A stretch of 30,614 nt of DNA from a virus (IMGVR_UViG_3300021963_000456:1-30614); one strand, 5' to 3'. Shown: positions 8,686-25,739, counted from the first letter of the stretch. The notes: generated by a model from the letters alone, not told the origin. Translations and numbers: made by a program.

Positions 8686-8943
8686 ATGAAGATATGCAAC
8701 TGTGGGGGTCAAGTCAGGCAACATGAACTGACTGGCGACAGAGAGGCATGGACATGCAATACCTGCGGTAGGTACGAGATAGTCAGTCGCTCCTTACCTA
8801 TGGACTTGACAGACATGAACGGGTATGATCCAGCAACTTCAATACCGAGGTCGCAATGCCCAATCCTCGCCTGTACCCAAAGCTGTCAACCCAAGCCATT
8901 GTTCAGTCAAAGGGATTCGACCCAAATGTCCCTTCTCCCCTGA
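8686..8943 (+). CDS. Small Zn-ribbon protein (MKICNCGG...WTCNTCG)
   Basis: GAGGG before the ATG at 8686; CxC...CxxC; the tail overlaps the next gene. Confidence 0.55.
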   Translation: MKICNCGGQVRQHELTGDREAWTCNTCGRYEIVSRSLPMDLTDMNGYDPATSIPRSQCPILACTQSCQPKPLFSQRDSTQMSLLP

Positions 8944-11900
8944 GTCAGGCGCATTCCCGCAGGATGGTTGAGCAACAGGTTGCCGATGCAAAGGCAAAGG
9001 ACATGCGCCTGTCCCCGTTGGACAGAGCCATTGCTGGTTTGGAAGCTGTAGCCATGGCAGGTTCAGCAATGTTTGAATCCATCCAACAAGCCCCCAAGCT
9101 GTTACAGGGCGAAGACGCATACGCCCAAGCCATTGGTAACCGCATGTATATGCCCCGCCAACAGCCTGAAAAGGCAATGGAGTACCTTGACAACGCACTG
9201 AACTTCGTTGACCGCCTACAGACCGAATACAAGCTCCCACCCATCATGCCTGAACTGGCTGGCTTCCAACCACTGGCTCAAGCCGCACAACAACAGGTTG
9301 GGCAGGGTGTCAAGCGTGGAGCCTTGCAAGCAGGCATGGCTGTTGAACGGTCGTTGGACAAGCCTGTGACCGACATCATGAACCGTGGCGGCATTGGCTC
9401 TGAGTTGCTGGGTTCCTTTAACACGCAACCTGCTCAGGTGGTCAAGCCCAAGGGTGGCAACTGGCGCACCAGCAATATGAGCGGCGGTATTGAAAGAAGC
9501 TTGGAATCGCTGAAGTCTCCAAAGATTGCGGGTGAGACACCTGCTGAGCGCATACCCAAACATGAAGCTTTGTTAAATGATCCAACATTAAATCAGGATC
9601 AACTTGACAGAGTGCGCTACCAGTTGGAGCAAACCAAAGGTGAAGCCGCACTTGATAAGTGGATTGAAAGCAATATTGCCAACTACCTCAAAAAGGACAT
9701 GGCAACTCCCACCGATCCTGTGCGACTGATGATGGATAAACGTGTGGGGGAGATTGAGGCGCAGTTCAATGTGGACATGCAACGTGCGCAACGCACCCGT
9801 GCAAGGGCTGAAGCAGAGCCTGATCCACGCAGGCAAGCCAACATGATGCGCCAAGCCCAGCGTGAAGAAGAGCAGGCAACGTTCGACCGTGACTTTGCTA
9901 TGGATCATGTCACGCATTTGCCCAAGGATGAGTTTGGCCCAGATGAGGACGCTTTGATTGATCTTCAGTCCAAGCGCCAGCAAGCTGGGTTTGCGCCAGA
10001 AGGCATGGCAACATCAGAGCCTGCCAAGCGATGGGAAAACATATCTGACGAAGCCATTGACATCAAACGTGCTGGTGACATACAAGCTCAAAAGCAATTG
10101 ATGATTGATGCTCAAAATGCTGATAGAGCATTGGCTGAGAAAAATGCTGAGATAAGTCAAAAATTTGATGAGTGGTTTGATTCCAGAGGCGTACCGCTGA
10201 CCGAAGAACAAAAAGCATCAGTAAAAAATAGAATGTCTCCTCAAGAAAAAGCGACGCTCGTTGGGGACACAGAATATGAGGCTATAAGAAACAACGCCAA
10301 CGATGCAATGTCCAAGATCAAGACAGCAGATTGGCATGCTGGCGAACAAAACCCATTCATATCCAAGCTTGACCCAGAGACCAGCACCTACTCTGCATAC
10401 ATAGATGAACTTGGCATAGACCACGTTGTTGATGTCATCAAGCAGGATTTAGCCGCTGGTCGCATCCGTCCTGAGCAACTGAACAAGCTATCGATGGATC
10501 AAGCTATTCAACGCACCGCCGAGTTCAATATGGAACAGGCAAAGAAGATGCGTGAGACTGCCATCAAAAACATGGAAGGCTTCCCTACATACAAAGACTA
10601 TGGGGACGAGGGCTACAAGTGGATTGAGTTGAAGAGACCTGAAGATTTGACTGAGTTGCCGCCAACACATCAAGTAGAACCTTACGAAAGCAAGGTGCAT
10701 GGTGGCACTGCATATCGTGTCGTCAACAAAGAGACTGGCATGAAAAGCGAAGGATTTAAAACGCCAGAACGTGCAACGCAAGAATTCTTGAAAGAACATT
10801 CCGAAGAGAGATTGGCTGAAGCCCTCAAGTATGAAGGCGACACCATGGGCCACTGCGTTGGTGGCTATTGCCCTGATGTAATCTCTGGCAAGTCCAAAAT
10901 CTATTCATTGCGTGACAGGCGTGGTGAGCCACATGTAACGGTGGAGGTGAACCCAGCAAGTGTTGATAGAGGCACTTTCCCTGTGGATACTTGGTTTAAA
11001 AGTCAATCAAAAGAAGTGCAAGACTCTATAACCGATGCAGGCTACACGGGATACAACATACGCTATTCACCTCAATTTAAAGAAGCCGAGGCATCTGCGC
11101 CAGCGTCAATTCGTCAGATCAAAGGCAAGCAAAACGCCGCACCCAAAGCAGACTACTTGCCATACGTTCAGGACTTTGTGCGCAGTGCTGAATGGACAGA
11201 TGTAGGTGACCTCAAGAACACGGGTCTTGTCAAGTACGAAGGCAAGATCATGACCCAATCCGAAGCTGATGATCTGCTGTACAAGCAATTGAACGCAGAC
11301 ATGCCCGGCATCACTGATGAGCTTGGCTTGACAAACCCACCACCTGAGCCGCCCATCGAAGGCATGAAGCGTGGTGGTGCTGTGAGCATCTCTGACAACC
11401 CTGACACCATGATGATGGAGTTGGAAGACCAAAAGTTTGCCGTGGGTGGAGCCGCCATCAAGCGTGTGTTGAAGATTGCAGACCATGCAGAACGTGCCAA
11501 AAAAGCGCAAGAGCTTTTGGTTCGTATGTCAACCAGCGGTCAGGTCGATCCAGAAGCCCAACGTGCTTTGCTCAAGGCGCAGTCTGGCGCACGGTCACTG
11601 CCAACCGTATTGCCACGGGCAAAGCCCAAGACCAAGGATGAGATCAGAGCATACGCACAACGCACCGCTGATCAACTCAATGCAATACAGCAAGGCAAGT
11701 TCCTTCGTGAAGACCCAACTGGCGCATCAATCAATGCCGCAGGCAAGTCAAAGAAACAGTGGGAGATGGAGCAGGGCTTGACCCATGACATCAGACCGCT
11801 TGGACTGCCACTTGATCCAATCAAGACAGCCAACATTGAAGACCAGCTTGGCATGTTGAAGCTTGGCATTTCAGGCGACACATCTATATCAGATCAAAAG

Positions 11901-13550
11901 CTATATCGGGCTGGTCAGTACGGACTTCAAAGCCCATCTGAACAACAGGGTGGCCCATACTTCGGATTGAGAAAACGGGCTGACCCTGCCGCATGGGCAT
12001 CCAACGTGCCTGTGCTTGAGAACTTGCAACGAGATGTTGGTGAATTTTCCAGAGCCTATGGTGACGTGCCTGTGATTGGGCAGTACAACTCAATGGGGCC
12101 GCAAGGTACGAACTTTGCCCAGCACTTTGCTGATGCCAATCTGGAAGCTATTGCCAGCCATGGACTGACACCAAGTCAAGCTGAACAAGTAAACAATTTG
12201 ATCAAGATGGGAAATGCCAAGTCTGGCGCATTTCCAGACTTCCCCGGTGTCGAAGACCCTGCTGGCGCTTACTTCTACTTTTCGTTTTACCCTGAGTTGC
12301 GCAAGCACTTCAACGACATCATGACCAAGCCTGACATCACCACCAAGCTTGGATTGCCTGATGGTCGTGTGATCCTGCATGCCATCACAGACCCTGAACT
12401 GCGTGACATGCCTTTGCTGACATCGGGCAAGGCGCAATACCAATTGGTTCCGAGCCAAGACCCCAAGAACTTGCCTTTGTCTGAGCATTCAACCTACACG
12501 CACAACCTGCCACGAGACCCTGACGCACCTGTCACACAAACACCCTTCCCTATCCCTGCTGAGTTTGAATTCTCTGATGTGACCGAGTACGCCAAGCCAC
12601 GGTACAAGCCAAGCGAGATGACCCGTGTCATACAAACAGCGGCTCCTCGTCAGATTGTTGACCCTCAGCATATTGACGAGATCAAGCAATACGAAGACTT
12701 CATGCGTCAATACACACCTCAATCTGAAAAGAAAAAGGAAGGTGGCTTGATCAAGGTCAAGCGCAAGGCAGGTGGTGGCATCATCAAGAAAGCAATTAAA
12801 GCCGCAGGCAAGGCTGTCGAAGCGCCAGCCACCAAGCGTTTGGAAATGAGCTTCAAGGACGTTGCCAAGCCTGTGCCAGAGCTTACTGAAGCCTCTCAAA
12901 AACTCAAGGCTGGTCAGCTATCCCGTGAGGAATACGAAGCTCTTGTGAACAAGCACAAGCCTGTTACGCCCTATTCCTTTGTCCCACAACCCGCAACGGC
13001 TGAAGATGCAAATCGTGCGCTGAACGTATCGCAACGCACAAAGTTCGGCAAGGTTCAAGACATCACGCCCGGAACACCCACGGGTTTGCGGCTGGACATC
13101 AATGCCTACAAAGACCATGGCGTGTGGGTAAATTCCATCCACCCCAAGGACATGCCAACGACATACAACAATGTGTCGTCTGTCACCAATGCTGAAATGA
13201 TCATGCCTGAAGAGAAGGCTTTGGAAGTGGCAACCAGAGAAAAGAACAAGTCACCATTTGCTGTGATCAAGGGTGGGTGGAATCCAATCAGCGAAGAGGA
13301 TGCTGTTGCCAGAGCGCAGGAATACCTGAACCATCCAGACTGGGTGCAGGTGGGCATTGATCCTGAACGACATGGCTACTACTACAACCGTGCCACCATG
13401 GAGCCAATAGTCAGGGCTGAAGAGGTAATCCAGATTGGCCCACTCGTGTTGGCAAAGAAGCCAGTCACAGCGCCCAAGGAAGCCTTCAAATACGCCCGTG
13501 GTGGTGTCGTCAACGCCAATGACTTGATCCTGACTGAGAGACCGCTATGA
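8856..13550 (+). CDS. Large modular polyvalent (probably virion-internal) protein with a PcfJ-like domain, 1564 aa
   Basis: GAGG RBS; EGDTMGHCVGGY...IYSLRD...TVE...QIKGKQN (about 10820-11140) is PcfJ-like; modules are separated by xxxGG linkers. Confidence 0.85.
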   Translation: MPNPRLYPKLSTQAIVQSKGFDPNVPSPLSQAHSRRMVEQQVADAKAKDMRLSPLDRAIAGLEAVAMAGSAMFESIQQAPKLLQGEDAYAQAIGNRMYMPRQQPEKAMEYLDNALNFVDRLQTEYKLPPIMPELAGFQPLAQAAQQQVGQGVKRGALQAGMAVERSLDKPVTDIMNRGGIGSELLGSFNTQPAQVVKPKGGNWRTSNMSGGIERSLESLKSPKIAGETPAERIPKHEALLNDPTLNQDQLDRVRYQLEQTKGEAALDKWIESNIANYLKKDMATPTDPVRLMMDKRVGEIEAQFNVDMQRAQRTRARAEAEPDPRRQANMMRQAQREEEQATFDRDFAMDHVTHLPKDEFGPDEDALIDLQSKRQQAGFAPEGMATSEPAKRWENISDEAIDIKRAGDIQAQKQLMIDAQNADRALAEKNAEISQKFDEWFDSRGVPLTEEQKASVKNRMSPQEKATLVGDTEYEAIRNNANDAMSKIKTADWHAGEQNPFISKLDPETSTYSAYIDELGIDHVVDVIKQDLAAGRIRPEQLNKLSMDQAIQRTAEFNMEQAKKMRETAIKNMEGFPTYKDYGDEGYKWIELKRPEDLTELPPTHQVEPYESKVHGGTAYRVVNKETGMKSEGFKTPERATQEFLKEHSEERLAEALKYEGDTMGHCVGGYCPDVISGKSKIYSLRDRRGEPHVTVEVNPASVDRGTFPVDTWFKSQSKEVQDSITDAGYTGYNIRYSPQFKEAEASAPASIRQIKGKQNAAPKADYLPYVQDFVRSAEWTDVGDLKNTGLVKYEGKIMTQSEADDLLYKQLNADMPGITDELGLTNPPPEPPIEGMKRGGAVSISDNPDTMMMELEDQKFAVGGAAIKRVLKIADHAERAKKAQELLVRMSTSGQVDPEAQRALLKAQSGARSLPTVLPRAKPKTKDEIRAYAQRTADQLNAIQQGKFLREDPTGASINAAGKSKKQWEMEQGLTHDIRPLGLPLDPIKTANIEDQLGMLKLGISGDTSISDQKLYRAGQYGLQSPSEQQGGPYFGLRKRADPAAWASNVPVLENLQRDVGEFSRAYGDVPVIGQYNSMGPQGTNFAQHFADANLEAIASHGLTPSQAEQVNNLIKMGNAKSGAFPDFPGVEDPAGAYFYFSFYPELRKHFNDIMTKPDITTKLGLPDGRVILHAITDPELRDMPLLTSGKAQYQLVPSQDPKNLPLSEHSTYTHNLPRDPDAPVTQTPFPIPAEFEFSDVTEYAKPRYKPSEMTRVIQTAAPRQIVDPQHIDEIKQYEDFMRQYTPQSEKKKEGGLIKVKRKAGGGIIKKAIKAAGKAVEAPATKRLEMSFKDVAKPVPELTEASQKLKAGQLSREEYEALVNKHKPVTPYSFVPQPATAEDANRALNVSQRTKFGKVQDITPGTPTGLRLDINAYKDHGVWVNSIHPKDMPTTYNNVSSVTNAEMIMPEEKALEVATREKNKSPFAVIKGGWNPISEEDAVARAQEYLNHPDWVQVGIDPERHGYYYNRATMEPIVRAEEVIQIGPLVLAKKPVTAPKEAFKYARGGVVNANDLILTERPL

Positions 13551-16093
13551 ACTTGATTGCAAACGCCATCAGGGCGGCAAAGGTTGGCGCAAAGACTGTA
13601 TCGAAGAACCAGCCGTTTTACTCAGCCGCAGACAAGGCGGCACTTGCACTGGCAAGAACAAAGGGTACGGGCAAAGAGTTCATGACGGAACTCAAGAAGA
13701 CCAAAGGTGTCAAACCAGCAGAGATTCAGCATCGCAAGCTTGAGCAGATTGAAGAGATGCCAAAGATGACCAAGGAGCAGTTCCTTGCTGAGTTGGAGAA
13801 GCGTCCACCTGCTGACGTGTCAGAGAATGTGTTGGAGCCTGTGACGCTGAAGATGAAGAATGATGTTGCCGAGGAGATGTTCCCCGGTCGCAACGACTAC
13901 ACCGACTACGTTGACCTCAACGCATCGCAACGACAAGCAGTTGATGAAGCCATTGAGTCACGCAAAGCACAGTACCGACAGTACACCATCCCCAAGGGCG
14001 AAAACTACAGGGAAATCCTGTTGCAACTCCCCTCCTTCATGGATGAAGAACGCCTGATGTACTTGGATGCTAAGAAGCGCCATGGTGGTTTGCACCCTGA
14101 GCTTGCACGAGAGTACGAACGACTCAAGGCAGAAAAGGAATCATTCCAACCTGAATATTTGAGCAGGCATTGGCAAGGCAATCCAAACGTATTGGCGCAC
14201 ATGCGTGTGTCTGACAGGATGACACCTGAAGGCAAAAAAATATTGCACGTTGAGGAAATTCAATCTGACTGGCATCAGGAAGGGCGCAACAAAGGATACA
14301 AGACCAATGAGTCTACTCAAGACATAGAAGCCTTAGCCAAAGAAGACATGGATAAATTTTATGGTCGTGGAAAAGGAGACATGTCTGATGAGGAATGGAA
14401 GGCGCTGGGCGATAGAGTTGAAGGTTGGCACAAAAAGATAAATCAATCTGTTCAAGGTGTCCCTGACGCACCATTCAAAAAGAACTGGCATGAGTTGGCA
14501 ATGAAGCGACTTATCAACTATGCCGCAGAGAATGGGTATGACAGCGTTGCCATCACGCCCGGTGTCGAGCAAGCGAAACGCTATGACCTGAGCAAGCACG
14601 TCAGCGAAATAAGCTATGGCACAAATCCAGATGGCTCTTATTCATTGACCGCAATTGATAAAAACGGCAGACCAGTAATCAGCAAAGCAAGCATCTCGCA
14701 GTCTGAACTAGAAGACACTGTTGGCAAAGAGATGTCGAAAAAGATTGTCGAAGGACAAGGCAAAGAGTACCCCGCTGGAAGTGCCAGTGAAGGCAAGAAA
14801 TCATTGTCTGGTCTTGATTTGCAAGTTGGTGGCGAAGGCATGCTTGGCTTCTACGACAAAATACTGCCTGACTACCTGAACCAGTTTGGCAAACCATACG
14901 GATCACAAGTTGAGTTGGGTGGCTTCAAGATAAAAGGTGATCCTTCCATGCGTGGTGAGGCATCAGAACGCCTTGGTCTTGCTGGGCAAAGATTCGATGA
15001 GATGACACCAGAGGAGATAGAAGCGTTCAACGCCAAGTTGGATGAAGCTAATGCCGTACCCCTGCACAACTTCCCCATCACCCCGCAGATGCGTGAAGAG
15101 GTCACCCAAGGGGGACTTCCTATGTACCAGCAGATTGGCCTCCCAATAGGCACAGGCGCTGTTGGCACACAAATAGAAGTGCCACAAAAGCAAGAGACCG
15201 AAGAACTTACATACGCCATGGGTGGTGCTGTGGATGACACAACGCCTGACATGAGTGACAGTGGACAGTTCCTCCAAGGTAGCGCATTCAAGCGTGGTGG
15301 TAAGGTGCATATCGCAGACAATCCAGACGTTATGTTCATGGAACTTAATGACAAAAAGCTTGCTGGTGGCGGCATATTGAAGAAAGCTTTGCAAGTCGCC
15401 AAGCCTGCTATTAAAGGCATGCAAGAGGTTTTGCCAGCAGTTGAGCGTGAAGCTAACCTTAAAAAGTTTCTTGCACCATCGGCGGAAAAGCGCAGAATGT
15501 ATCACGGCTCTAAGGAGCCAAACATTAAAGAATTTAAAACTAGAAAGGAAATGACTGACGATAGCATGAAGACTGGTCATTACGCTGACGAGCGTGACGC
15601 AGTATTCTTGTCGCCAGAGCCTCAGTTTACTAAGCACTTCTCTCAAGAAGGCTACACAGACACGCATCAAGCGCCAACTACATATCCAGTCCATGTGCAG
15701 ATTGAAAGGCCGTTTGACTTTGACAATCCAGAACATTTGGGAAAGGTCAAGGAAACGTATCTTGATATGTATCACAACCCTGAATCAGATTTGTATGACC
15801 CATATATGTTGCCATCTGAGCGATCTATGGCAATACATACATTCAACAAACGTGTTGATAATTTACCAAACGACGAAAACAACTGGGCAAGAATTGAAAA
15901 TAAAGACTTTCAAGAAGTTCTAAAAGATTTAGGTTTTGATTCTTTTTACACTCGTGAGCGTGGAACTAAAAATCTTGGTATATACGAACCAAATAGAATC
16001 AAGTCCGCACTTGGCAATCGTGGTACATACGACATCAATGAGCCAGATATCAACAAGCGCACAGGCGGCTTGGCAAACATTAAAAGGAAGTAA
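13547..16093 (+). CDS. Modular polyvalent protein: EEIQSDWHQ-type domain plus C-terminal ADP-ribosyltransferase (ART-PolyVal-like), 848 aa
   Basis: ATGA coupling; C-terminal MYHGS...VFLS...YPVHV..ERP...GFDS...YEPNRIKSALGNRGTYD..EPDI pattern. Confidence 0.82.
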   Translation: MNLIANAIRAAKVGAKTVSKNQPFYSAADKAALALARTKGTGKEFMTELKKTKGVKPAEIQHRKLEQIEEMPKMTKEQFLAELEKRPPADVSENVLEPVTLKMKNDVAEEMFPGRNDYTDYVDLNASQRQAVDEAIESRKAQYRQYTIPKGENYREILLQLPSFMDEERLMYLDAKKRHGGLHPELAREYERLKAEKESFQPEYLSRHWQGNPNVLAHMRVSDRMTPEGKKILHVEEIQSDWHQEGRNKGYKTNESTQDIEALAKEDMDKFYGRGKGDMSDEEWKALGDRVEGWHKKINQSVQGVPDAPFKKNWHELAMKRLINYAAENGYDSVAITPGVEQAKRYDLSKHVSEISYGTNPDGSYSLTAIDKNGRPVISKASISQSELEDTVGKEMSKKIVEGQGKEYPAGSASEGKKSLSGLDLQVGGEGMLGFYDKILPDYLNQFGKPYGSQVELGGFKIKGDPSMRGEASERLGLAGQRFDEMTPEEIEAFNAKLDEANAVPLHNFPITPQMREEVTQGGLPMYQQIGLPIGTGAVGTQIEVPQKQETEELTYAMGGAVDDTTPDMSDSGQFLQGSAFKRGGKVHIADNPDVMFMELNDKKLAGGGILKKALQVAKPAIKGMQEVLPAVEREANLKKFLAPSAEKRRMYHGSKEPNIKEFKTRKEMTDDSMKTGHYADERDAVFLSPEPQFTKHFSQEGYTDTHQAPTTYPVHVQIERPFDFDNPEHLGKVKETYLDMYHNPESDLYDPYMLPSERSMAIHTFNKRVDNLPNDENNWARIENKDFQEVLKDLGFDSFYTRERGTKNLGIYEPNRIKSALGNRGTYDINEPDINKRTGGLANIKRK

Positions 16094-16095
16094 CC

Positions 16096-18615
16096 ATGGC
16101 AACACAAATGCCTATTGACCAAGAGTTCGGACGCAACATCGATGGCATGGAGACCATGACCGAAAACGAAGACGGCAGTGTTGAAGTTCCGTTGGAGATG
16201 GATGAGTCACAGATTGAGGAACTGCCTGATGGCTCCGCTGTGGTGACCATGGACGACAACTTCAAAGGCCCAAGCGAAGACGAGGACTTTTATTCCAACC
16301 TTGCTGACAGCGAAATTGACTCGTGGGAGTTGGACAAGATTGCTTTGCGGTACATCGAACTGCTGGAGAAGGATAAGTCTGCCCGTGAACAGCGGGACAA
16401 GCAGTATGAGGAGGGCATTCGACGCACGGGCATGGGGCATGATGCGCCCGGTGGCGCTAACTTCAATGGTGCATCCAAGGTTGTCCACCCTGTCATGGCT
16501 GAAGCCTGCGTTGACTTTGCTTCCCGTGCCATCAAAGAGCTATTCCCACCCGATGGCCCGACCCGCACCAAGATTTTGGGCGACGTGGACAAGGAAAAAC
16601 TTGCTGTTGCCGAGCGTAAACGTGACTACATGAACTGGCAGTTAACAGAACAGATCGAAGAGTTCCGTGACGAGCAAGAGCAACTGCTGACTCAACTGCC
16701 TTTGGGTGGTTCACAGTTCATGAAGCTGTGGTACGACGAGCAAAAACGCCGCCCATGTGCTGAATTTGTGCCGATTGACAACGTATTATTGCCATTTGCC
16801 GCCGCAAATTTCTACACCGCACAGCGTGTGACCGAGGTTCATGACATCACGGACTGGGAATTCAAGCGTCGCATCGCCTCTGGGCTGTACCGTGACACTG
16901 ATTACATTCGTGCAACGGTCGATCCAGAAGAATCCAAGGCTGAAAAAGCCAACAACAAGATCGAAGGACGCAAGTCTGAAGACAATGAAGACGGAATCCG
17001 TCGGGTTTTCCACGTCTACACATGGCTTGAGCTTGATGACGACCCCCGTACCAAGGGCGAAATGGCTCCGTACATCCTGATGATCGACGAGTACGACAAC
17101 CAAGTCGTTGGTTTGTACCGAAATTGGGAAGAAGGCGACGAGACTTACACCAAATTGGACTGGTTGATTGAGTTCAAATTCATTCCGTGGCGTGGAGCCT
17201 ATGCTGTGGGTCTGCCGCACCTAATTGGAGGGCTTGCCGCCGCTTTGACGGGGTCTCTGAGGGCTTTGTTGGACTCGGCGCACATCAACAACAGCGCAAC
17301 GATGCTGAAGTTGAAGGGGGCAAAGATCAGCGGACAGTCACAACAGGTCGAAGTCACGCAGGTGGTGGAGATTGAAGGCGCTCCCGGTGTCGATGACATC
17401 AAAAAGATCGCCATGCCCATGCCGTTTAACCCGCCATCACAGGTTTTGTTTGAGTTGATGGGTTATTTGGACAAAGCCGCCAAGGGCGTGGTGACCACCG
17501 CCGAAGAAAAGATTGCTGACATCACCTCCAACGCCCCTGTTGGCACGACTCAGGCGCTGATTGAGCAGGGTGCGGCTGTGTTCTCAGCCATCCACGCCCG
17601 TTTGCACGACAGCCAGAGCCGTGTGCTGAAAGTTTTGGGCAGATTGAACCGTTGGTACTTGGATGACCAGAAAAAAGGCGATGTGGTTGCCGATTTGGAG
17701 ATCACAAAGGACGATTTCCGCCGCAACACGGACGTTGTGCCTATCTCTGACCCGCACATCTTCTCCGAAACACAGCGCATGGCGCAAATGCAGGCGGTTT
17801 TGGCACGTTCTGAGAAGCGCCCTGACCTGTACAACCTCAAAGCGGTGGAGGAGCGGTTCTTGAAGCAGATCAAGATACCTGCTGTCAACGAAATCCTGAA
17901 AAACACACCTGATCCTGAGAAGCGTGACCCTGCCAACGAGAACGTGGCTATGGCATTGGGGCAAGCCGCCTTTGCTTACATTGACCAAGACCATTTGGCA
18001 CACATTCAGAGCCACTTGGACTTTGCCAAAGACCCAGTCATGGGCGGCAACCCGTTGATGGCTCCAGCGTTCATTCCACAGGTCATGGAACACCTGAAAC
18101 AGCACTTGACCCTGTGGTATCTCAACCGCATGAACGGGTACGTTACAAAGGCTGTGGGACACCCTGTGAAGGATTACGACAGCGAGGACATGACTGCCAA
18201 GGTGGACAAGCTTTATGCCGTGGCTTCACAGCACGTCAACTTGGATACGGCTACCGTCTTCCAAGGCATTTTGCCAATCATCCAGCAGATGCAACAGCAA
18301 CTCCAGCAGATGCAACCTACCCCACCGCTGACACCAGAAGCCAAGGTGCTGATGGACACCAGCATGGCAGAGACACAGCGTCGTGCCGCCAAAGACCAAG
18401 CCGACACCCAACTGGCACTGAAGAAACAACAGGATCAGTTGATGATTGCGCAAGAGGACAACCAGTTGAAGCTGGCTATTGCCGAAGGCGACAACGAAAC
18501 CAAAGAACGTATCGAATCTGCAAGACTGGCTCGTGACACAGCCAAGTTGCAACATGAGCAGGCGAAAACTGCAATTTCTTTAACCAACCAAGGAAACCCA
18601 AATGGCTACCAGTGA
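16096..18615 (+). CDS. Portal protein (P22-like podovirus type)
   Basis: AAGGAAG RBS; 839 aa; V.HPV.AEA..F, LPL.GS.F.K...D, F.P..G.Y..GL.HLIG, APVGTT.ALIE; Q-rich barrel tail. Confidence 0.88.
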   Translation: MATQMPIDQEFGRNIDGMETMTENEDGSVEVPLEMDESQIEELPDGSAVVTMDDNFKGPSEDEDFYSNLADSEIDSWELDKIALRYIELLEKDKSAREQRDKQYEEGIRRTGMGHDAPGGANFNGASKVVHPVMAEACVDFASRAIKELFPPDGPTRTKILGDVDKEKLAVAERKRDYMNWQLTEQIEEFRDEQEQLLTQLPLGGSQFMKLWYDEQKRRPCAEFVPIDNVLLPFAAANFYTAQRVTEVHDITDWEFKRRIASGLYRDTDYIRATVDPEESKAEKANNKIEGRKSEDNEDGIRRVFHVYTWLELDDDPRTKGEMAPYILMIDEYDNQVVGLYRNWEEGDETYTKLDWLIEFKFIPWRGAYAVGLPHLIGGLAAALTGSLRALLDSAHINNSATMLKLKGAKISGQSQQVEVTQVVEIEGAPGVDDIKKIAMPMPFNPPSQVLFELMGYLDKAAKGVVTTAEEKIADITSNAPVGTTQALIEQGAAVFSAIHARLHDSQSRVLKVLGRLNRWYLDDQKKGDVVADLEITKDDFRRNTDVVPISDPHIFSETQRMAQMQAVLARSEKRPDLYNLKAVEERFLKQIKIPAVNEILKNTPDPEKRDPANENVAMALGQAAFAYIDQDHLAHIQSHLDFAKDPVMGGNPLMAPAFIPQVMEHLKQHLTLWYLNRMNGYVTKAVGHPVKDYDSEDMTAKVDKLYAVASQHVNLDTATVFQGILPIIQQMQQQLQQMQPTPPLTPEAKVLMDTSMAETQRRAAKDQADTQLALKKQQDQLMIAQEDNQLKLAIAEGDNETKERIESARLARDTAKLQHEQAKTAISLTNQGNPNGYQ

Positions 18616-18754
18616 TCAAGAGCAAAAGAGCGAACTTGTCCCACAACACAAGCGCATCGCAATGGGCGAAAAGCTTGATGGCACAAGCATGCAACCCAAA
18701 GGCGGAAATCAAAAACCACAACAAGGAGGCTTGTCACAAGCGAAGAAGAAATAA
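18602..18754 (+). CDS. Small basic protein, 50 aa (MATSDQEQK...QQGGLSQAKKK), not in the ORF track
   Basis: AAGGA RBS; read manually; its stop abuts the next ATG. Confidence 0.72.
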   Translation: MATSDQEQKSELVPQHKRIAMGEKLDGTSMQPKGGNQKPQQGGLSQAKKK

Positions 18755-18940
18755 ATGAGCATCATCGGAGACCTAATCGGTGCGTTGAAGAGTCGGCAGG
18801 CTGAAATAGCCGCTTCACTCGCCAGCGGGAACGCAGGCACATGGGAGACCTATCAGCGCATGGTTGGAACATTTCAAGGATTGCAAGAATCTTTGGACAT
18901 CTTAAACAAACTATTAAAGGATGAAAATGAGCGTGACTGA
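18755..18940 (+). CDS. Conserved small helical protein preceding GroES
   Basis: L..G....E.Y..MVG...GL pattern. Confidence 0.82.
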   Translation: MSIIGDLIGALKSRQAEIAASLASGNAGTWETYQRMVGTFQGLQESLDILNKLLKDENERD

Positions 18941-19364
18941 ACCCGAAGCTTTGAACAAAGCTGAACTTAACTGGGCATTTCCAGTTGTCGATCCGGGCGC
19001 AAAACCTCTTGGCGGACGCATCTTGGTGCAACTCCGTCGGACAAGACAAAAAACGACTGGCGCAGGAATCATATTGGTCGAAGAGACCAAGGAAACCGAA
19101 AAGTGGAACAACATGGTGGCAAAGGTCTTGATGATTGGCCCCCTCGCCTTCAAAAACCGTGACACCATGCAACCGTGGCCCGAAGGCTCGTGGTGTGAGG
19201 TTGGCGACTATATCCGTGTCCCCAAGTGGGGTGGTGACCGTTGGGAGGTAAGAGTTCCCGGCGAGGATGACTTGGAAGACCCCGCATTGTTCATGGTTCT
19301 CAACGACCATGAGGTTATTGCCACCGTAACTGGTGACCCACTTGCCATGAAAGCGTTTTTATGA
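18927..19364 (+). CDS. groES: GroES/Cpn10-like co-chaperonin
   Basis: KPLGGRILV...TGAGIIL...KVLMIGP...CEVGDYI..PKWGG...VLNDHEVIA matches Cpn10. Confidence 0.88.
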   Translation: MSVTEPEALNKAELNWAFPVVDPGAKPLGGRILVQLRRTRQKTTGAGIILVEETKETEKWNNMVAKVLMIGPLAFKNRDTMQPWPEGSWCEVGDYIRVPKWGGDRWEVRVPGEDDLEDPALFMVLNDHEVIATVTGDPLAMKAFL

Positions 19365-20335
19365 GTACAGAAACACAAGACAAACTGGACGACATTCAAG
19401 TCTCCGAAGAAAAAGACGGGTCTGTCAGAGTCGATCTGCCTGACCACATCCAAAGCCCTGACGCACCCGAAGACGACGGTGACGATAAGGACACAGTCCT
19501 TGCCGATGGTGGTGAGGTCGATGAACAGGATCATCCTGACGACACGGAAGCCATCCGTGCCGCCCGACGCAACCAGCGCCGTGCCAGAAAGGAAATGATC
19601 AAGCAGAAGAATGCCGAGAAGGACATTCGCCTGCAAAACCTCCAGCGCCAAAACCAAGAGTTGCTTGAGCGCCTGTCTGTGGTCGAACGCAAGACACAGT
19701 CAGCCGACTTGGCACGGATTGACAAGGCACTGGAAGACAAAGAACTGCGCTTGCAGTACGCCAAGATGAAAATGTCAGAAGCCACCACAAACAGTGATGG
19801 TGAGGCTTTCAGCAAGGCACAGGACATGTGGTACGAGGTGCGCCGTGAAATCGAGTCCATCAAGGCTCTGAAGGAACAGGCAGTTCGTACCAGCAACAAC
19901 CAGCCCATTCAAGACAACCGTGAGATGCAACGCCAAGCCTCCAAGTGGATGGATCGCAATCCGTGGTACGACCCGAATGGCGATGAAGAAGATGTTGAGA
20001 TTGCCAAGGTGGTTGATCAACGGCTTGTTAAAGAAGGCTGGAACCCAAACACATCAGAATATTGGGATGAGTTGGATAGACGCTTGCAAAAGCGTATACC
20101 CCACCGTTATACTGATGACAATGACGAGAGACCTACTCGTAAACCAAGGAGCGTTGTGACAAGTTCAGGGCGTGAAAACATTTCTGGTAGTGGCGCAAAA
20201 AACACTTTCACTCTGTCGCCAGAGCAAGTGCGAGCCATGAAGGATGCGGGTTTCTGGGATGACTCAGAAAAACGCAACAAGATGATTAAGCGTTATGCAA
20301 TGGAAGCACGTCAATCCCAAGGTTATAGGAGTTAA
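19361..20335 (+). CDS. Putative capsid scaffolding protein
   Basis: Acidic N-terminus, long coiled coil, W...NPWY, C-terminal LSPEQV..; lies between portal and capsid. Confidence 0.75.
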   Translation: MSTETQDKLDDIQVSEEKDGSVRVDLPDHIQSPDAPEDDGDDKDTVLADGGEVDEQDHPDDTEAIRAARRNQRRARKEMIKQKNAEKDIRLQNLQRQNQELLERLSVVERKTQSADLARIDKALEDKELRLQYAKMKMSEATTNSDGEAFSKAQDMWYEVRREIESIKALKEQAVRTSNNQPIQDNREMQRQASKWMDRNPWYDPNGDEEDVEIAKVVDQRLVKEGWNPNTSEYWDELDRRLQKRIPHRYTDDNDERPTRKPRSVVTSSGRENISGSGAKNTFTLSPEQVRAMKDAGFWDDSEKRNKMIKRYAMEARQSQGYRS

Positions 20336-20337
20336 AA

Positions 20338-20880
20338 ATGGCAACAGAATCTCGTCTCAAAAAATCTCTCAACGCAGGTGGTCGTGATAATAGGTCTGCA
20401 CAAGACTTGACCCGTGCCGCCCCCGAGGAGAAGTTCGTCTCAGCACAGGAACGTCGCAAGATGTGGAGTGATGAGTGGACACAAAGCGCCCTGCCGAAGC
20501 TACCCGAAATGAAAGGGTGGCATCTTTGCTGGTTATCAACCACCAATAGTTACGACAGTCTTGATAAACGGATTCGACTTGGATACGTTCCCGTGAGAGC
20601 GGATGAGTTCCCCAATTTCGACAATTACCGTGTAAAAGCTGGAGAACACGTTGGTCATGTCGCATGTAATGAAATGATCTTGTGCAAAATCCCAGAGGAT
20701 ATGTACCAAGACATTATGTTGCAGATGCACCATGAAGCACCAATGGACGAGGCGGACAAAATCAAAGTCCAAATCGAACAGCTTCAGGGTAATCGTGACA
20801 GTTCAGGCAAATCGCTTGGGCAGGTTGAAGGCGAAGGATTCGGACAATTTGACCAAACCGTCCGCACACCCGTCTTTTAA
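20338..20880 (+). CDS. Conserved head-module protein of unknown function
   Basis: AGGAG RBS; GWHLCWLS...R.RLGY.PV...L.KIPE motif. Confidence 0.82.
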   Translation: MATESRLKKSLNAGGRDNRSAQDLTRAAPEEKFVSAQERRKMWSDEWTQSALPKLPEMKGWHLCWLSTTNSYDSLDKRIRLGYVPVRADEFPNFDNYRVKAGEHVGHVACNEMILCKIPEDMYQDIMLQMHHEAPMDEADKIKVQIEQLQGNRDSSGKSLGQVEGEGFGQFDQTVRTPVF

Positions 20881-20912
20881 TACGGATCGGACAACCAAAA
20901 AGGAGGAGGACT

Positions 20913-21515
20913 ATGTCTTCAACTAACGCTCCGTTTGGCTTGCGTCCCGCTTTCCACCCATCAGGTCTGGATCGTGCTCAAGCTCTTGCCAACGGTATTC
21001 AAGCAGTCTCTACCAGCGGTAACGTCTCCGCTGGCTATGCCACCACCATCCTGAAGGGTCAGCCCGTCAAGATGAACACTGGTGGTTACATCGTGGTCGC
21101 CGCCGCTGGTGATGCGTTCCTCGGAGCCTTTGCAGGTGTCGAGTGGACTGATTCAACAGGCCGTCGCCGTGTTTCCAACTACTGGCCTGCCAACGAGTCA
21201 TTCCTCGTCGGTTCTGTCGTTGCGTATTTCTACTCTGACCAAAACATCGTGTATGAAATCCAAACCGATGGCACTATGGCTCAAACCGCCATTGGTGACG
21301 AAGCTGACCTAAGCAACACAACTGCTGGTTCAACAACCACTGGTTTGTCTCAAGCCACTCTGTCCACCACTTTGGCTGGTTCAGGAAACACCGCACAAAT
21401 GCGTATCGTTGATATAGGCCCTTACGCCGACAACGCTTGGGGTGACGACTACGTCATCGTTCGTACAACCATCGCCAAGTACCAGTTCGCTGGTGTCGCT
21501 GGCACAGCAATCTAA
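20913..21515 (+). CDS. Putative capsid decoration/cement protein
   Basis: AGGAGGAGG RBS; APFGLRP, G.FAGVEWTD, YE.Q; directly upstream of the MCP. Confidence 0.7.
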   Translation: MSSTNAPFGLRPAFHPSGLDRAQALANGIQAVSTSGNVSAGYATTILKGQPVKMNTGGYIVVAAAGDAFLGAFAGVEWTDSTGRRRVSNYWPANESFLVGSVVAYFYSDQNIVYEIQTDGTMAQTAIGDEADLSNTTAGSTTTGLSQATLSTTLAGSGNTAQMRIVDIGPYADNAWGDDYVIVRTTIAKYQFAGVAGTAI

Positions 21516-21528
21516 GGAGGAGTGAACC

Positions 21529-22443
21529 ATGGCCGCTCCAATGCGCAGTACCGACTTTCGTAGCATTGTCGAACCAATCTTGAATGAATGTTTCGATGGT
21601 GTCTACGATCAACGAACCGACGAATGGTCACGAGTTTTCCGTGAACAAGAAGGTATTCCCCGTAACTACCACGAAGAACCCGTCCTGTACGGATTCGGAG
21701 CCGCACCCCAGTTGCCTGACGGTACTCCTGTCAGCTACCAACAAGGTGGTGTTCTCTTCTTGCAACGCTATGTGTACAACGTGTATGGCCTCGCCTTCGC
21801 ATTGACCAAAGTGTTGGTTGAAGACGGCGACCATATCCGCATCGGTCAGGTTTATGCACGTCACTTGGCACAGTCTTTGATTGAAACCAAAGAAACTTTG
21901 TCAGCAAACGTGTTGAACCGTGCTTTCAATAGTTCGTACCCCGGTGGTGATGGCGTTCAGTTGAACTCCGCTTCACACCCCATCGTGAATGGTACTTTCA
22001 GCAACTTGTTGACCACTGCCGCCAACTTGTCTCAGACATCTCTTGAGCAGATGCTGATTCAGATTCGCCAAGCTGTGGACAACAACGGCAAGAAGATTCG
22101 CTTGGTTCCCCGCCAATTGGTGGTGGCTCCCGGCAACGTCTTCCAAGCCGAAGTGTTGTTGAAATCCGTTCTGCGTTCTGGCAATGCAAACAACGACATC
22201 AACCCCGTCAAGTCCATCGGTCTGTTGGACGAAGGTGCGGCAGTGTTGTCACGTTTGACCAATCCAAGCGCATGGTGGGTACAAACCGACGCACCTGAAG
22301 GCATGAAGCTTTTGATGCGTCGCAAGCTGGAGAAAACGATGGAAGGCGACTTTGAAACTGACTCTATGCGCTACAAAGCGACAGAGCGTTACCAAGTTGG
22401 TTTCACCGATCCCCGTGCTATGTACGGTACACCCGGCGTTTAA
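21529..22443 (+). CDS. Major capsid protein (HK97 fold, Mu gpT-like family)
   Basis: AAGGAGG RBS; GF..A....G, ..E...AN.LN.AF, GDGV.L.S.SHP, EGDFET..MRYKA.ERY..G..DPR..YG.PG. Confidence 0.9.
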   Translation: MAAPMRSTDFRSIVEPILNECFDGVYDQRTDEWSRVFREQEGIPRNYHEEPVLYGFGAAPQLPDGTPVSYQQGGVLFLQRYVYNVYGLAFALTKVLVEDGDHIRIGQVYARHLAQSLIETKETLSANVLNRAFNSSYPGGDGVQLNSASHPIVNGTFSNLLTTAANLSQTSLEQMLIQIRQAVDNNGKKIRLVPRQLVVAPGNVFQAEVLLKSVLRSGNANNDINPVKSIGLLDEGAAVLSRLTNPSAWWVQTDAPEGMKLLMRRKLEKTMEGDFETDSMRYKATERYQVGFTDPRAMYGTPGV

Positions 22444-22450
22444 TGATCCG

Positions 22451-22472
22451 AATGGGGGCTTCGGCTCCCGTT
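22451..22472 (+). terminator. UUCG hairpin after the capsid gene
   Basis: AATGGGGGC-TTCG-GCTCCCGTT; short U tract. Confidence 0.6.
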
Positions 22473-22491
22473 CTTACATGGAGAAAAGACA

Positions 22492-22941
22492 ATGGCACAA
22501 ACCTATATTGGTTCTACCCTTCGCACGGGTTCTGGCACACTGACTGATACGACTGACGGCGGATTTGTCGTCGTCTCTCAAACAGTTGAAGTTACATCTG
22601 TAGCGGCTGGCACAGCGGCAATCAGCACCATTACTCTTCCTGCAAGCTCACAGATCATCAACATTTTTGTTGATAAAACTCAGCTTCAGGTTGTTGGTGG
22701 CGGCACTGCAACCACTTTGCCCTGCTTGGTTGGTTCAACCAGCGGTGGTGGCGAATATGTTCCCTCTGTGGACATGTTTACAACCGTTCGCTCAAATGGT
22801 GTGATGACAGTAGCTACGTTGGCGGCAATGGCAAATATTGGAACAAACACAACCGTGTATTGCACAGTTGATCCAAATGGAACCATTTCGACAACTCAAG
22901 CGAAAATCCGATTCACCGTTGTTTACGCTCAAAAAGTCTAA
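22492..22941 (+). CDS. Putative virion structural protein
   Basis: GGAG RBS; T/G/V-rich beta protein, TLPA.SQI, TVVYAQ end. Confidence 0.8.
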   Translation: MAQTYIGSTLRTGSGTLTDTTDGGFVVVSQTVEVTSVAAGTAAISTITLPASSQIINIFVDKTQLQVVGGGTATTLPCLVGSTSGGGEYVPSVDMFTTVRSNGVMTVATLAAMANIGTNTTVYCTVDPNGTISTTQAKIRFTVVYAQKV

Positions 22942-22952
22942 GGAGATAAGCA

Positions 22953-24038
22953 ATGGGTCAATTCAAACCAATGGTCAAAATGATGACCACTGAGCCAACA
23001 GTTGAACTGAAGCTCAAAAAGGGTGGGTCTGTCGAGAAGGCGGACGGTGGATACATGCCCATGAGATCGGGTATGTCTTCATCTATGCCTGCATCAATGC
23101 CTGCTCGTGGCGGAATGATGCCCTCTGCTCGTCCAATGAAACCTTCAATGGCAATGCGTCGCAAGGCGATGATGGCTTCCAAACCTCCCATGTCGGCTAC
23201 CCCCGCCATGAAAGAGGGTGGTGAGTCCAAAGCCGAACACAAAGCCGAAATGAAGGCTATCAAGGGCGTTAAATCTGAAATCAAGAGCCATGCATCCAAG
23301 CCTGCCAGCAAAGCCCACAAAGGCTTGAAAACTGGTGGCGTGGTCATGGGTCAAGCTGGTTTCAAAGAAGGCGGCATCATCAGCAATGAAAAGCAAGCGG
23401 CAACCTCTACCAAGATGGTTACCTCCAAGCCTGATCACTCACCTGCCAAAACTGGTGATGTCAAGATGGGCAATGGCGGTGGTTACAAAAAAGGTGGAGC
23501 AACCCACAAGTACGCCAAGGGCGGTTCTGTGATGAACTACGTTGACGGTAATGTTGTTGGTACGCCTGCTGGCAAAACCAATACCAAGACTGGCGAAGTA
23601 GCCAAATCCAACGCAGGTGGTTACAAAAAGGGTGGTGCTTTAAAAAAGTATGCTAGGGGCGGTGAGGTAGTGCAGGACGACGGCAAGGCGGTAGAGATGC
23701 CGCAAGGTCGTAAGAAGCCCTCTGCCCCTGTGAGCATTACTGCACTGTCTGGAACCTTCAAAAAGGGTGGTTCTGTCAAGAAGATGGCTAGTGGTGGCTC
23801 CGAAAGTGACCACGACGCAGTGATTGATCGTGAGATGTCACGCCGTGATGCTGAGAAGGCATCCGAACGTGCTGAAAACGAAGCAATGCGTGAAAGCATT
23901 CTTGGCGCACCGAAGCGTTTGATTGAAGGTGCAAAGCGTTTGTTTAGCGGAACTCCGCCTTCTGGCAGTGTGACGAAGACCGAAAAGTCTGTGACCGTCG
24001 CACCAGCAAAGAAACGTGGTGGCTCTGTAAAGTGCTGA
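22953..24038 (+). CDS. Lys/Gly/Met-rich low-complexity protein with 12 xxxGG motifs
   Basis: AAGGAG RBS; LKKGG, KADGG, MKEGG, LKTGG, FKEGG, YKKGG x2, YAKGG, YARGG, FKKGG, MASGG, KKRGG. Confidence 0.85.
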   Translation: MGQFKPMVKMMTTEPTVELKLKKGGSVEKADGGYMPMRSGMSSSMPASMPARGGMMPSARPMKPSMAMRRKAMMASKPPMSATPAMKEGGESKAEHKAEMKAIKGVKSEIKSHASKPASKAHKGLKTGGVVMGQAGFKEGGIISNEKQAATSTKMVTSKPDHSPAKTGDVKMGNGGGYKKGGATHKYAKGGSVMNYVDGNVVGTPAGKTNTKTGEVAKSNAGGYKKGGALKKYARGGEVVQDDGKAVEMPQGRKKPSAPVSITALSGTFKKGGSVKKMASGGSESDHDAVIDREMSRRDAEKASERAENEAMRESILGAPKRLIEGAKRLFSGTPPSGSVTKTEKSVTVAPAKKRGGSVKC

Positions 24039-24041
24039 ACC

Positions 24042-24070
24042 AAGGTGGGGGCTACGGCCCCCGCTTTTTT
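24042..24070 (+). terminator. Rho-independent terminator
   Basis: GGTGGGGGC-TACG-GCCCCCGCT followed by a T run. Confidence 0.85.
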
Positions 24071-24081
24071 AAGGAATAAAA

Positions 24082-24486
24082 ATGGCTGATGCAGTTACAA
24101 GTCAAACCCTGCTTGACGGCGAACGTCTTGCAATTATGAAATTCACAAACATCAGTGATGGCACTGGTGAGTCTGCGGTTTTAAAGGTAGATGTTTCTGC
24201 TCTTGCAAAAAGCGCATCGGGCGCTGTATGCGATAGGGTTACGGTTACCAAAATCTACATTTCTACTCATGGCATGGAAGTCAGAATGTTGTGGGACGCT
24301 ACAGCGGATGTGCCGTTTTTTCTTTCGGCTCCCAATGCGACGCAAACGCTTGATATGACAAACTTTGGCGGCATTACCAACAATGGCGGTGCTGGAGTTA
24401 CTGGTGACATTATGTTTACCACGGCTGACGCATCATCTGGTGACACCTATTGGGTTATCTTGGAGATGGTCAAGGGGTATGCTTGA
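24082..24486 (+). CDS. Conserved putative structural protein
   Basis: AAGGA RBS; MADAVTSQT...KFTN.SDGTGES.V.KVDVSAL...TGDI.FTT motif. Confidence 0.82.
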   Translation: MADAVTSQTLLDGERLAIMKFTNISDGTGESAVLKVDVSALAKSASGAVCDRVTVTKIYISTHGMEVRMLWDATADVPFFLSAPNATQTLDMTNFGGITNNGGAGVTGDIMFTTADASSGDTYWVILEMVKGYA

Positions 24487-24938
24487 TGCCAAGCAAGTCC
24501 CCTGCCCAACATCGCTTGATGCAAGCCGCCGCCCACACTAAGGGTGGCTTTGGTGGTGCGCCCCAAAAGGTTGGTAAGGAATTTTCCAAGGCTGATGAGG
24601 GCAAGAAATTTAAAGATGGTGGAGTAACCCAATCTTTAAAAAAAGCTGGGTTTTATGATGAAGGCAAAAGCAAATCAGAGCGCCAAAAAATTATTGATGA
24701 CGTAACAACCAAGCCTCAAAGGGTGCAAATTGTGGAAAAAGTATTCTCAGACAAAAAAATGAAAGCAGGTGGTTTGTATGAAAACATTCATCGAAAACAG
24801 CAAAGAATTGCTGAAGGCTCTGGCGAAAAAATGCGTCGAGTTGGTAGCAAAGGTGCGCCAACGGCTGATGCCTTCAAACAGTCAGCCAAAACAGTGAAGA
24901 AAAAAGAAGGCGGCAAGGCAACAAATTGTTGCTGGTGA
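24486..24938 (+). CDS. Basic protein built from three small modules joined by xxxGG linkers
   Basis: TGATG coupling; MPSKSPAQHRLM...FKDGG / VTQS...MKAGG / LYENIH...KKEGG / KATNCCW. Confidence 0.8.
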   Translation: MPSKSPAQHRLMQAAAHTKGGFGGAPQKVGKEFSKADEGKKFKDGGVTQSLKKAGFYDEGKSKSERQKIIDDVTTKPQRVQIVEKVFSDKKMKAGGLYENIHRKQQRIAEGSGEKMRRVGSKGAPTADAFKQSAKTVKKKEGGKATNCCW

Positions 24939-24941
24939 GCT

Positions 24942-25196
24942 ATGGCAAAGAAAAATCCATCTCTAGCTGTTGGTCGTGGGGAGAAGCTCCCTGTGTCCAA
25001 GGGTGCAGGATTGACCGAAAAGGGTCGTGCCAAGTACAACCGTGAGACTGGGTCAAATTTAAAGGCTCCACAGCCACAAGGTGGCTCCCGCAAGGATTCG
25101 TTCTGCGCCAGAATGAGCGGTGTGGTGGAGCATTCAAAGGGTGATGCACCAAGGGCAAAAGCATCGCTGAAACGCTGGGATTGTCCATCATGGTAG
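24942..25196 (+). CDS. Small basic conserved phage protein (DUF6321-like)
   Basis: GLT.KGRAKYN..TGS.LKAP...RK.SFCARM.G...SL.RW.C pattern. Confidence 0.8.
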   Translation: MAKKNPSLAVGRGEKLPVSKGAGLTEKGRAKYNRETGSNLKAPQPQGGSRKDSFCARMSGVVEHSKGDAPRAKASLKRWDCPSW

Positions 25197-25682
25197 GCGG
25201 TCAATATGGGTAAAAAGTTTTTTTGCTTCTGTTTTGTATGCTTCATAGGCATCTTCTGCGGTGTCAAAAAAGCCTATGGTTGTGCGCTTTCCATTGTGAG
25301 AAATTCTTGCCATCCACTTGTCAACCGATTTGTGCCAAGTGACTCCTCTAAATCCAGAAGAGTTATTTTTTGGGGCTGGCCTGTTTTGCTGGTTTTGATG
25401 ATTTGTCGCCAATCGAAGATTTTCAAGTCGGTTGTCAAATTTTTTACCGTTTATGTGATCAATAAAAAATTTATTTGGTATTTGCCCAAAAAGCATTACC
25501 CAAATAACCCGGTGCAATTTATAAGTCTTGGAGTTAATGGTCACAACCTTATAGCCAGACCCATGAATGCACCCAGCAATGGAGCCTTTCACCATGTTTG
25601 ATCGTCCTTCTCTCCATCGGACAATTCCACTCATTGGGTCATACTCAAAAATTGATTTCAATTCTTCTTGCAACAGAGCCAT
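25188..25682 (-). CDS. HNH homing endonuclease with C-terminal AP2 domain
   Basis: LHRVIW...IDHINGKKFDNRLENLR and N.SGFRGV.W....KW.ARI...IG.F.T.EDA..AY; the only credible minus-strand gene; AT-rich. Confidence 0.92.
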   Translation of the reverse strand: MALLQEELKSIFEYDPMSGIVRWREGRSNMVKGSIAGCIHGSGYKVVTINSKTYKLHRVIWVMLFGQIPNKFFIDHINGKKFDNRLENLRLATNHQNQQNRPAPKNNSSGFRGVTWHKSVDKWMARISHNGKRTTIGFFDTAEDAYEAYKTEAKKLFTHIDRLP

Positions 25683-25739
25683 AATCAAATCCATTATCAA
25701 TGTGAATGGCAATAGTCTACCACTTTGGGAGAAATGGTA

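Follow-up and report, generated by a model that had tools for sequence, protein, structure and literature searches.

The virus record IMGVR_UViG_3300021963_000456, a stretch of 30,614 bases that was analysed as a whole and is referred to here as the window, carries a head module made up of the terminase subunits, two large proteins, the portal, a GroES-like protein, a scaffold-like protein, the capsid protein, several small genes, an adaptor and fibres. A short motif centred on a glycine pair (the GG motif) recurs in several of these proteins, and is considered below together with a small tape-measure-type domain, without an established name, that is called DOM here. In total, 43 open reading frames (ORFs) were translated and 30 of the window proteins were compared with Pfam. 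The capsid protein is 94-100% identical in 80 IMG/VR loci and 77% identical in a cultured relative, Caulobacter phage RW, and the best holders of matching sequences are mostly freshwater metagenomes. Because the complete close relatives span 54-58 kb, the window lacks about half of the genome, with the ejection genes among the missing part.

The initial annotation had reported about 25 copies of the pattern [FYMLK]-[AKR]-x-G-G. Every site that it listed was recovered at its coordinates (Table 1), and the pattern gave 27 matches in the 43 ORFs against 2.97 +/- 1.7 expected from composition-matched shuffling (maximum 10 in 5000 per-protein shuffles). Two matches outside that list, one in terminase and KRHGG at 14075 within a module of the 848-amino-acid (aa) protein, look like background, the latter (residue 177) being probably a chance match. 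Since this pattern had been fitted to the window, a stricter form, [FYM][AK]xGGx[VIAL], was tried on other genomes, where five complete relatives gave counts of 10, 6, 7, 11 and 8, with 0.4-0.7 copies expected per genome. The form [FYML][AK]xGG gave 79 copies over the same five genomes, none of which lies outside the virion modules, in agreement with the proposed confinement to virion-module proteins; two are in fibre-like proteins, and the remaining 77 are spread over the repeat protein (361 aa in the window), the small modular protein (150 aa in the window), the terminase-portal proteins, one protein beside the ejection genes, and the C-termini of the portal (1) and of an ejection protein (1).

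The motif is also kept in relatives of the 361-aa protein: all 72 homologues have it, and 64 distinct ones give the consensus [YMLF]-[KA]-x-G-G-x-[VA]. Of 658 core contexts, 95% have Lys or Ala after a hydrophobic residue that lies three positions ahead of GG; the filter that selected these contexts permitted six residues at the Lys/Ala position. The motif can be summarised as hydrophobic, Ala or Lys, any, Gly, Gly, any, Val. It is a real, conserved signal, the function of which has to be inferred. No published description of this GG tag was found, with subscription journals and supplements falling outside the coverage, and the accessible text of PMC10386132 does not mention the motif.

The motif lies at module boundaries and near C-termini, as the initial annotation had proposed. 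The family of the 150-aa protein (58 distinct proteins) combines four small modules in varying order, and internal modules start after GG in 42/42 cases for DUF6321, 16/17 for phrog_16028 and 2/2 for a third module, whereas 0/12 N-terminal module starts follow GG. The 42 are those of 47 distinct DUF6321 homologues that are fused behind another module, with the motif at the joint every time. The two large proteins (ART-PolyVal E 3.8e-9, PcfJ E 7.5e-7 in Pfam) are, as judged from their sequences, polyvalent proteins of the kind described in PMC5512222, with modules that are shuffled among 36 distinct proteins from the terminase-portal interval. In these 36 proteins, 78 of 254 internal clusters of alignment ends have a motif no more than 25 residues away, where random placement gives 35.8 +/- 5.5 (maximum 56), although shared motifs may inflate the count by lengthening alignments; 86 of 116 internal motifs have an alignment end beside them, and 26 of the 36 proteins carry a motif within 25 residues of the C-terminus. 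The position of the window modules 867-1312 of the 1564-aa protein and 610-841 of the 848-aa protein differs between relatives, which have them at the N-terminus, in the interior or at the C-terminus. Motif copy number and spacing vary among homologues of the repeat protein, and GG stands 2-4 residues from the C-terminus in 52/64 of those that are distinct.

Table 1. Features of the window and of related genomes, with first bases (and residues) of GG motif copies
Feature	Coordinates	Strand	GG motif copies	Remarks
1564-aa polyvalent protein	8856..13550	+	11364, 11436, 12732, 12765, 13491 (residues 837, 861, 1293, 1304, 1546)	Modules about 1-836 (PcfJ-like 654-701), 867-1293, 1308-1545, bounded by the motifs
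Motif pair with short spacer	11364..11450	+		In 1564-aa protein
848-aa polyvalent protein	13547..16093	+	15212, 15287, 15359, 16055 (residues 556, 581, 605, 837)	N-terminal module with phrog_7348 match 203-456; ART-PolyVal module 650-827
Portal	16096..18615	+	none	
50-aa ORF	18602-18754			Overlaps portal stop; 32 homologues among 80 loci
GroES-like gene	18921-19364			Within head module
Scaffold-like protein	19361..20335	+	19499	Assigned from position and composition
Conserved 180-aa head-module protein	20338-20880			Family unassigned
Major capsid protein	21529..22443	+	no strict motif	
361-aa Lys/Gly-rich repeat protein	22953..24038	+	12 copies, 23013 to 24009	Net charge +35
150-aa small modular protein	24486..24938	+	24609, 24759, 24900	Three small modules, phrog_16759 (1-45), one without name, phrog_16028 (95-140); motif after each
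Stand-alone DUF6321	24942..25196	+	none	
HNH/AP2 endonuclease	25188-25712	opposite		Between DUF6321 and adaptor
Ketoacyl-synthase region	L475:12378-16037 (G004); L085:20074-23815 (MW202545)			Relatives of the window
Lys-rich peptides	L257:9718-9849 and L339-L418		2-3 copies	HTVC104P clade, near capsid gene

Some features of these proteins stand apart from the boundary pattern. Both large proteins have a similar spacer, about 19 residues long, that separates paired motifs (window 11364-11450 and 15287-15373), and the repeat protein (window 22953-24038) has a C-terminal Cys, a few residues past the last GG, in 58/64 distinct homologues. The scaffold motif is optional, with the strict form in 16/58 distinct scaffolds, and a motif-like copy within the last 30 residues was present in 3/36 distinct portal sequences. 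YQQGG in the capsid protein (window 21736-21750) fits a loose pattern only, was left uncounted and is probably a structural loop; 77/77 homologues have a loose match. The 180-aa protein has a loose motif-like sequence, near the N-terminus where seen, in 43/71 homologues. An amphipathic leader behind module-opening motifs was considered and dropped as too weak (mean helical moment 0.34, n=55, versus 0.28 +/- 0.14 for random sequence).

A candidate reader of the motif was found in the part of the genome that the relatives hold in full. The 639-aa protein ahead of the ejection genes in the complete relative MW202545 carries the motif and ends in two copies of DOM, and all five complete close relatives (5/5) have DOM, which is C-terminal in the protein encoded immediately ahead of the ejection genes and comes after 1-3 canonical motifs. 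DOM matches tape-measure PHROGs and was detected in 188 phage records at E <= 0.01, mostly tape-measure proteins among the 60 listed, while 10,522 protein clusters matched the DOM query at E <= 0.001. Two proteins outside the DOM profile are matched by it, JBD30 gp46 at 1019-1056 (E 6.9e-5) and Douge gp16, twice (E 2.3e-13). In tape-measure proteins and in Caulobacter phage RW the motif continues straight into DOM, so that by sequence register it corresponds to the first strand of the domain. This assignment of the motif is new here. GG is retained in the strand of DOM itself in 1/32, 0/31 and 0/12 distinct copies of three tag-rich clades, and in RW, LeBron and EvePickles (one matched copy each); in the clade of the window, a canonical motif lies about 15-25 residues upstream of the DOM strand.

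Five residues of DOM, S38, D39, D47, G48 and E49, show no variation over an alignment of 81 sequences. Where DOM has two repeats, Ser-Asp is present in 100% of first repeats and Gly-Glu in 100% of second repeats, and a diverged MW202675 protein shows the identical division. AlphaFold modelled the two-repeat form well (predicted local distance difference test, pLDDT, 82.9; predicted template modelling score, pTM, 0.80) and a single copy poorly (60.6 and 0.37), which suggests that DOM folds as a pair, the two models also differing in alignment and length. The two-repeat DOM had no Foldseek match to a solved fold at E <= 0.001 (best VIA Z 3.0 among 48,161 chains), and its fold matches in BFVD are uncharacterised or generically named phage proteins. 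MW202675 also encodes a short two-repeat DOM protein that is joined behind a small module via MKRGG (L493:955-1683). In several relatives a ketoacyl-synthase gene, with flanking 93-aa and 146-aa genes, lies just ahead of the DOM-bearing or ejection-region genes, and may serve to modify an ejected protein with lipid. An unusually high Cys content is seen in two proteins from the ejection region of MW202545 (L085:18832-21993).

To compare the distribution of DOM with that of free motifs, 11 named records were taken from the 22 that have a homologous capsid protein; in five of the 11, motifs were counted on 23-46 kb. Enrichment of the motif is seen in four named genomes, namely MW202545 (10 versus 0.61), Pag-Yong1 (4 versus 0.17), DSL-LC04 (5 versus 0.29) and MW202675 (6 versus 0.29), and all four have DOM; in DSL-LC04 and MW202675 the motifs had been counted before DOM was searched for. 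Five named genomes that are DOM-free over the whole record have 0-1 strict motifs each. From 160 loci in two other capsid clades, 30 on longer contigs were drawn, 13 of them at least 90% complete; DOM was found in 0/30 of these loci, which hold 7 strict motifs where about 5.8 would be expected, and the same profile recovered DOM in four other records. The HTVC104P clade, whose capsid protein was outside the matches to the window capsid protein, has both DOM and free motifs (28 versus 3.4 outside DOM proteins), the latter mostly in Lys-rich peptides of about 40-47 residues. At the level of these genome comparisons, the co-occurrence of DOM and motif is support for a link between them, not proof.

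The favoured reading, with a probability of about 0.4, is that the GG motif is a docking tag that would be bound by DOM, gathering tagged modules in the phage head. A paired DOM would grip free motif copies in place of its own weakened strand, the tagged modules would thereby gather with the ejection proteins, and tagged proteins would be packaged as virion cargo; in the phage of the window, DOM would be encoded in the part of the genome that is absent from the contig. Motifs at the joints would result, without any need for cleavage, if modules with a terminal tag of their own were fused to one another, and the C-terminal copies in polyvalent proteins (26/36) and in repeat proteins (52/64, with 2-4 trailing residues) fit a tag. 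The cargo protein C1 (gp45) of crAss001 also favours docking, although its kinship with DOM is unproven: its modelled segment 425-552, present in 12 copies on the portal, opens with an uncut A-F-G-G (PMC10172136).

Several observations weigh against docking. The stand-alone DUF6321 proteins are tagged in 0/5 cases, which docking leaves unexplained, and the 30.6-kb window itself has no DOM gene. RW and HTVC023P have DOM and only one strict motif each. The compared genomes are kin within clades, so that the co-occurrence is not independent, and the DOM profile might overlook a diverged DOM. As for C1, its A-F-G-G is a degenerate copy of the motif, and hhalign gave a probability of 0.5% for kinship with DOM (from a 5-sequence C1 alignment), with no fold match.

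Docking is ranked ahead of the reading that comes closest to it, namely that DOM is a small paired protease of unrecognised fold. This doubtful but serious alternative has DOM binding the motif and cutting at GG, which would free modules for ejection and chop up the basic repeat protein; in tape-measure proteins, DOM would cut its own chain. It is consistent with a motif at every internal DUF6321 joint and at none of the N-terminal module starts, and with the clustering of motifs in spacers, which resembles the extra sites of SPN3US propeptides (PMC5694885). The five invariant DOM residues also count in its favour, and one composite site is suggested by the way in which Ser-Asp and Gly-Glu are divided over the repeats. 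Against it, the single-domain alignment has no invariant Cys or His and no HExxH, and the removal of 2-4 terminal residues, as the C-terminal copies would entail, serves no obvious purpose.

Gene order also bears on this alternative. The interval between the portal and capsid genes is the usual slot of a head protease gene, and the HTVC104P clade has its DOM gene there in 53/75 loci. No adenain, C39 or head-protease Pfam family was found in the 30 window proteins or in the 100 proteins of two complete relatives (G004 and G001), although a highly diverged enzyme might escape such a search; the lack of another head protease counts in favour of cleavage by DOM.

Tape-measure proteins provide the remaining evidence for and against cleavage by DOM. 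Lambda gpH loses about 14 kDa from its Gly-rich C-terminal region, by a cut for which a 2025 paper calls both site and catalyst unknown (PMC12617516). Copies of the motif are present in gpH at 733, 778 and 842, and a cut after FATGG at 737 would free 12.2 kDa, which fits the loss but does not discriminate, as Gly-rich residues at about 709-721 fit 14 kDa equally well or better. The motif and Gly-Glu positions of gpH resemble those of DOM, but the match of gpH 733-777 to the DOM profile is weak once lambda is left out of it (E 0.012 among 609 targets); an earlier value of 1.7e-11 was discarded as circular, lambda having been inside the profile. The tape-measure protein of T5 includes a peptidase in the corresponding region, whereas the authors of the JBD30 paper saw no peptidase motif in the hook region that corresponds to DOM (PMC11445458). 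The uncut motif copy of C1 also speaks against cleavage (PMC10172136). In its widest form, the protease reading would place DOM in a new protease class, very small and paired, in which the site is a composite of Asp and Glu. In the tape-measure proteins of siphophages it would cut its own chain, which would account for the conversion of lambda gpH to gpH*, and it would have been redeployed in abundant aquatic podoviruses, where free copies of the first strand would direct the loading and processing of all inner head proteins; this extension is slightly less probable than cleavage by DOM alone.

An unlikely third possibility is that the motif is read by something else, such as the capsid interior, the portal, the scaffold, or a protease of phage or host that has escaped recognition; DOM, which has the same strand, would then serve only as an anchor that pairs with itself. 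Cargo-loading peptides of the encapsulin type offer a parallel, in that they bind a shell protein on its inner face. Several conserved head genes of unassigned function are available for this role, among them that of the 180-aa protein, which was considered as a protease and had no Pfam match, only matches to unnamed PHROG and atlas clusters. The few tags of RW and HTVC023P, which have DOM, and the lack of a recognisable catalytic set in DOM also fit another reader. Against it, the clades with a homologous capsid protein and no DOM show no motif enrichment, and enrichment is seen in a second capsid lineage (HTVC104P), which shares DOM. Least probable is that the motif has no specific reader and is a flexible linker, a scar of recombination or the low-complexity repeat unit of basic DNA-binding proteins. 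Copy number and spacing do vary in the 361-aa protein, which is rich in Lys and Gly, and shared coding sequence could seed module swaps, but the hydrophobic, Ala/Lys and Val positions are conserved over unrelated proteins and lineages, composition-matched shuffles yield far fewer matches, and the motif tracks DOM.

If the tag does address virion cargo, the injected effector modules of very common aquatic phages (about 2000 IMG/VR stretches match the capsid patterns) would become predictable from sequence, and an unnamed module of many tape-measure proteins would gain a function. If DOM is instead a protease, gpH 733-737 is named as a candidate site, together with candidate residues, for the lambda cleavage (PMC12617516).

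Among known systems, the tape-measure proteins are closest to DOM in sequence, which matches the JBD30 hook, Douge gp16 and many siphophage tape-measure proteins. The hook was predicted by AlphaFold at residues 1022-1066 of JBD30 gp46, in a paper whose accessible text does not mention the motif (PMC11445458); for Douge, only the last 42 residues are resolved, and cleavage is not mentioned in the accessible text. The present case differs from the hook in that DOM is part of a podovirus-type protein encoded next to the ejection genes, has lost the GG of its own strand, and is accompanied by free copies of that strand elsewhere. crAss001 C1 (PF25725, gp45) is the nearest named cluster to DOM in the atlas search (score 0.85) and is likewise an ejection-type protein, in which similar GG motifs at 260 and 559 flank a compact portal-bound domain; the motif is not enriched genome-wide in crAss001. 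The motif of gp45 (L419:30488-33016) at 260-264 lies between the tail-bound part, 214-245, and the portal-bound part, 425-552 (PMC10172136), and a cut at this position would be an alternative way to explain the separation of the two.

The polyvalent proteins share with the large window proteins a mosaic, multidomain, late-gene character and the ART-PolyVal domain. Iyer et al. 2017 proposed that they are processed through built-in zincin-like metallopeptidase domains, which are common but not universal, and the word 'glycine' is absent from the main text (PMC5512222). Neither large window protein has a zincin-like metallopeptidase match in Pfam at E <= 0.01.

The initial annotation had proposed a tagging or processing system and compared it with adenovirus, African swine fever virus (ASFV) and C39 peptidases. 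The first part is likely, given the enrichment of the motif, its restriction to virion modules and its position at boundaries, whereas the comparison was not upheld, no such family having been found in the 30 window proteins or in the 100 proteins of the two relatives. As for the partner of the motif, for which that annotation had named the capsid protein, the portal and the scaffold among its candidates, the co-occurrence data favour a domain whose gene lies outside the window. The adenain cleavage consensus is (M/L/I)xGG, and a C39 system pairs an N-terminal leader ending in GG with a C39 peptidase. The likeness to adenain, ASFV pS273R and C39 consists in a GG pair after a hydrophobic residue. 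Compared with adenain, the hydrophobic residue is here one position farther from GG, a conserved Val follows GG, and no clan CE family was found; compared with C39 leaders, the sites are mostly internal or C-terminal, and no C39 match was obtained.

The prohead proteases of T4, phiKZ and SPN3US (gp21- or gp175-like) cut after Glu and remove mostly N-terminal propeptides (PMC5694885). Here the signal is GG-based and internal or C-terminal, and no such protease was found in the 100 proteins of the two relatives. The systems are alike in placing one short signal on many inner head proteins, and theirs, which in T4 includes the capsid-targeting sequences, first loads the protein and is then cut; since the T4 signal does both (PMC5694885), docking at DOM and cleavage by DOM can be combined.

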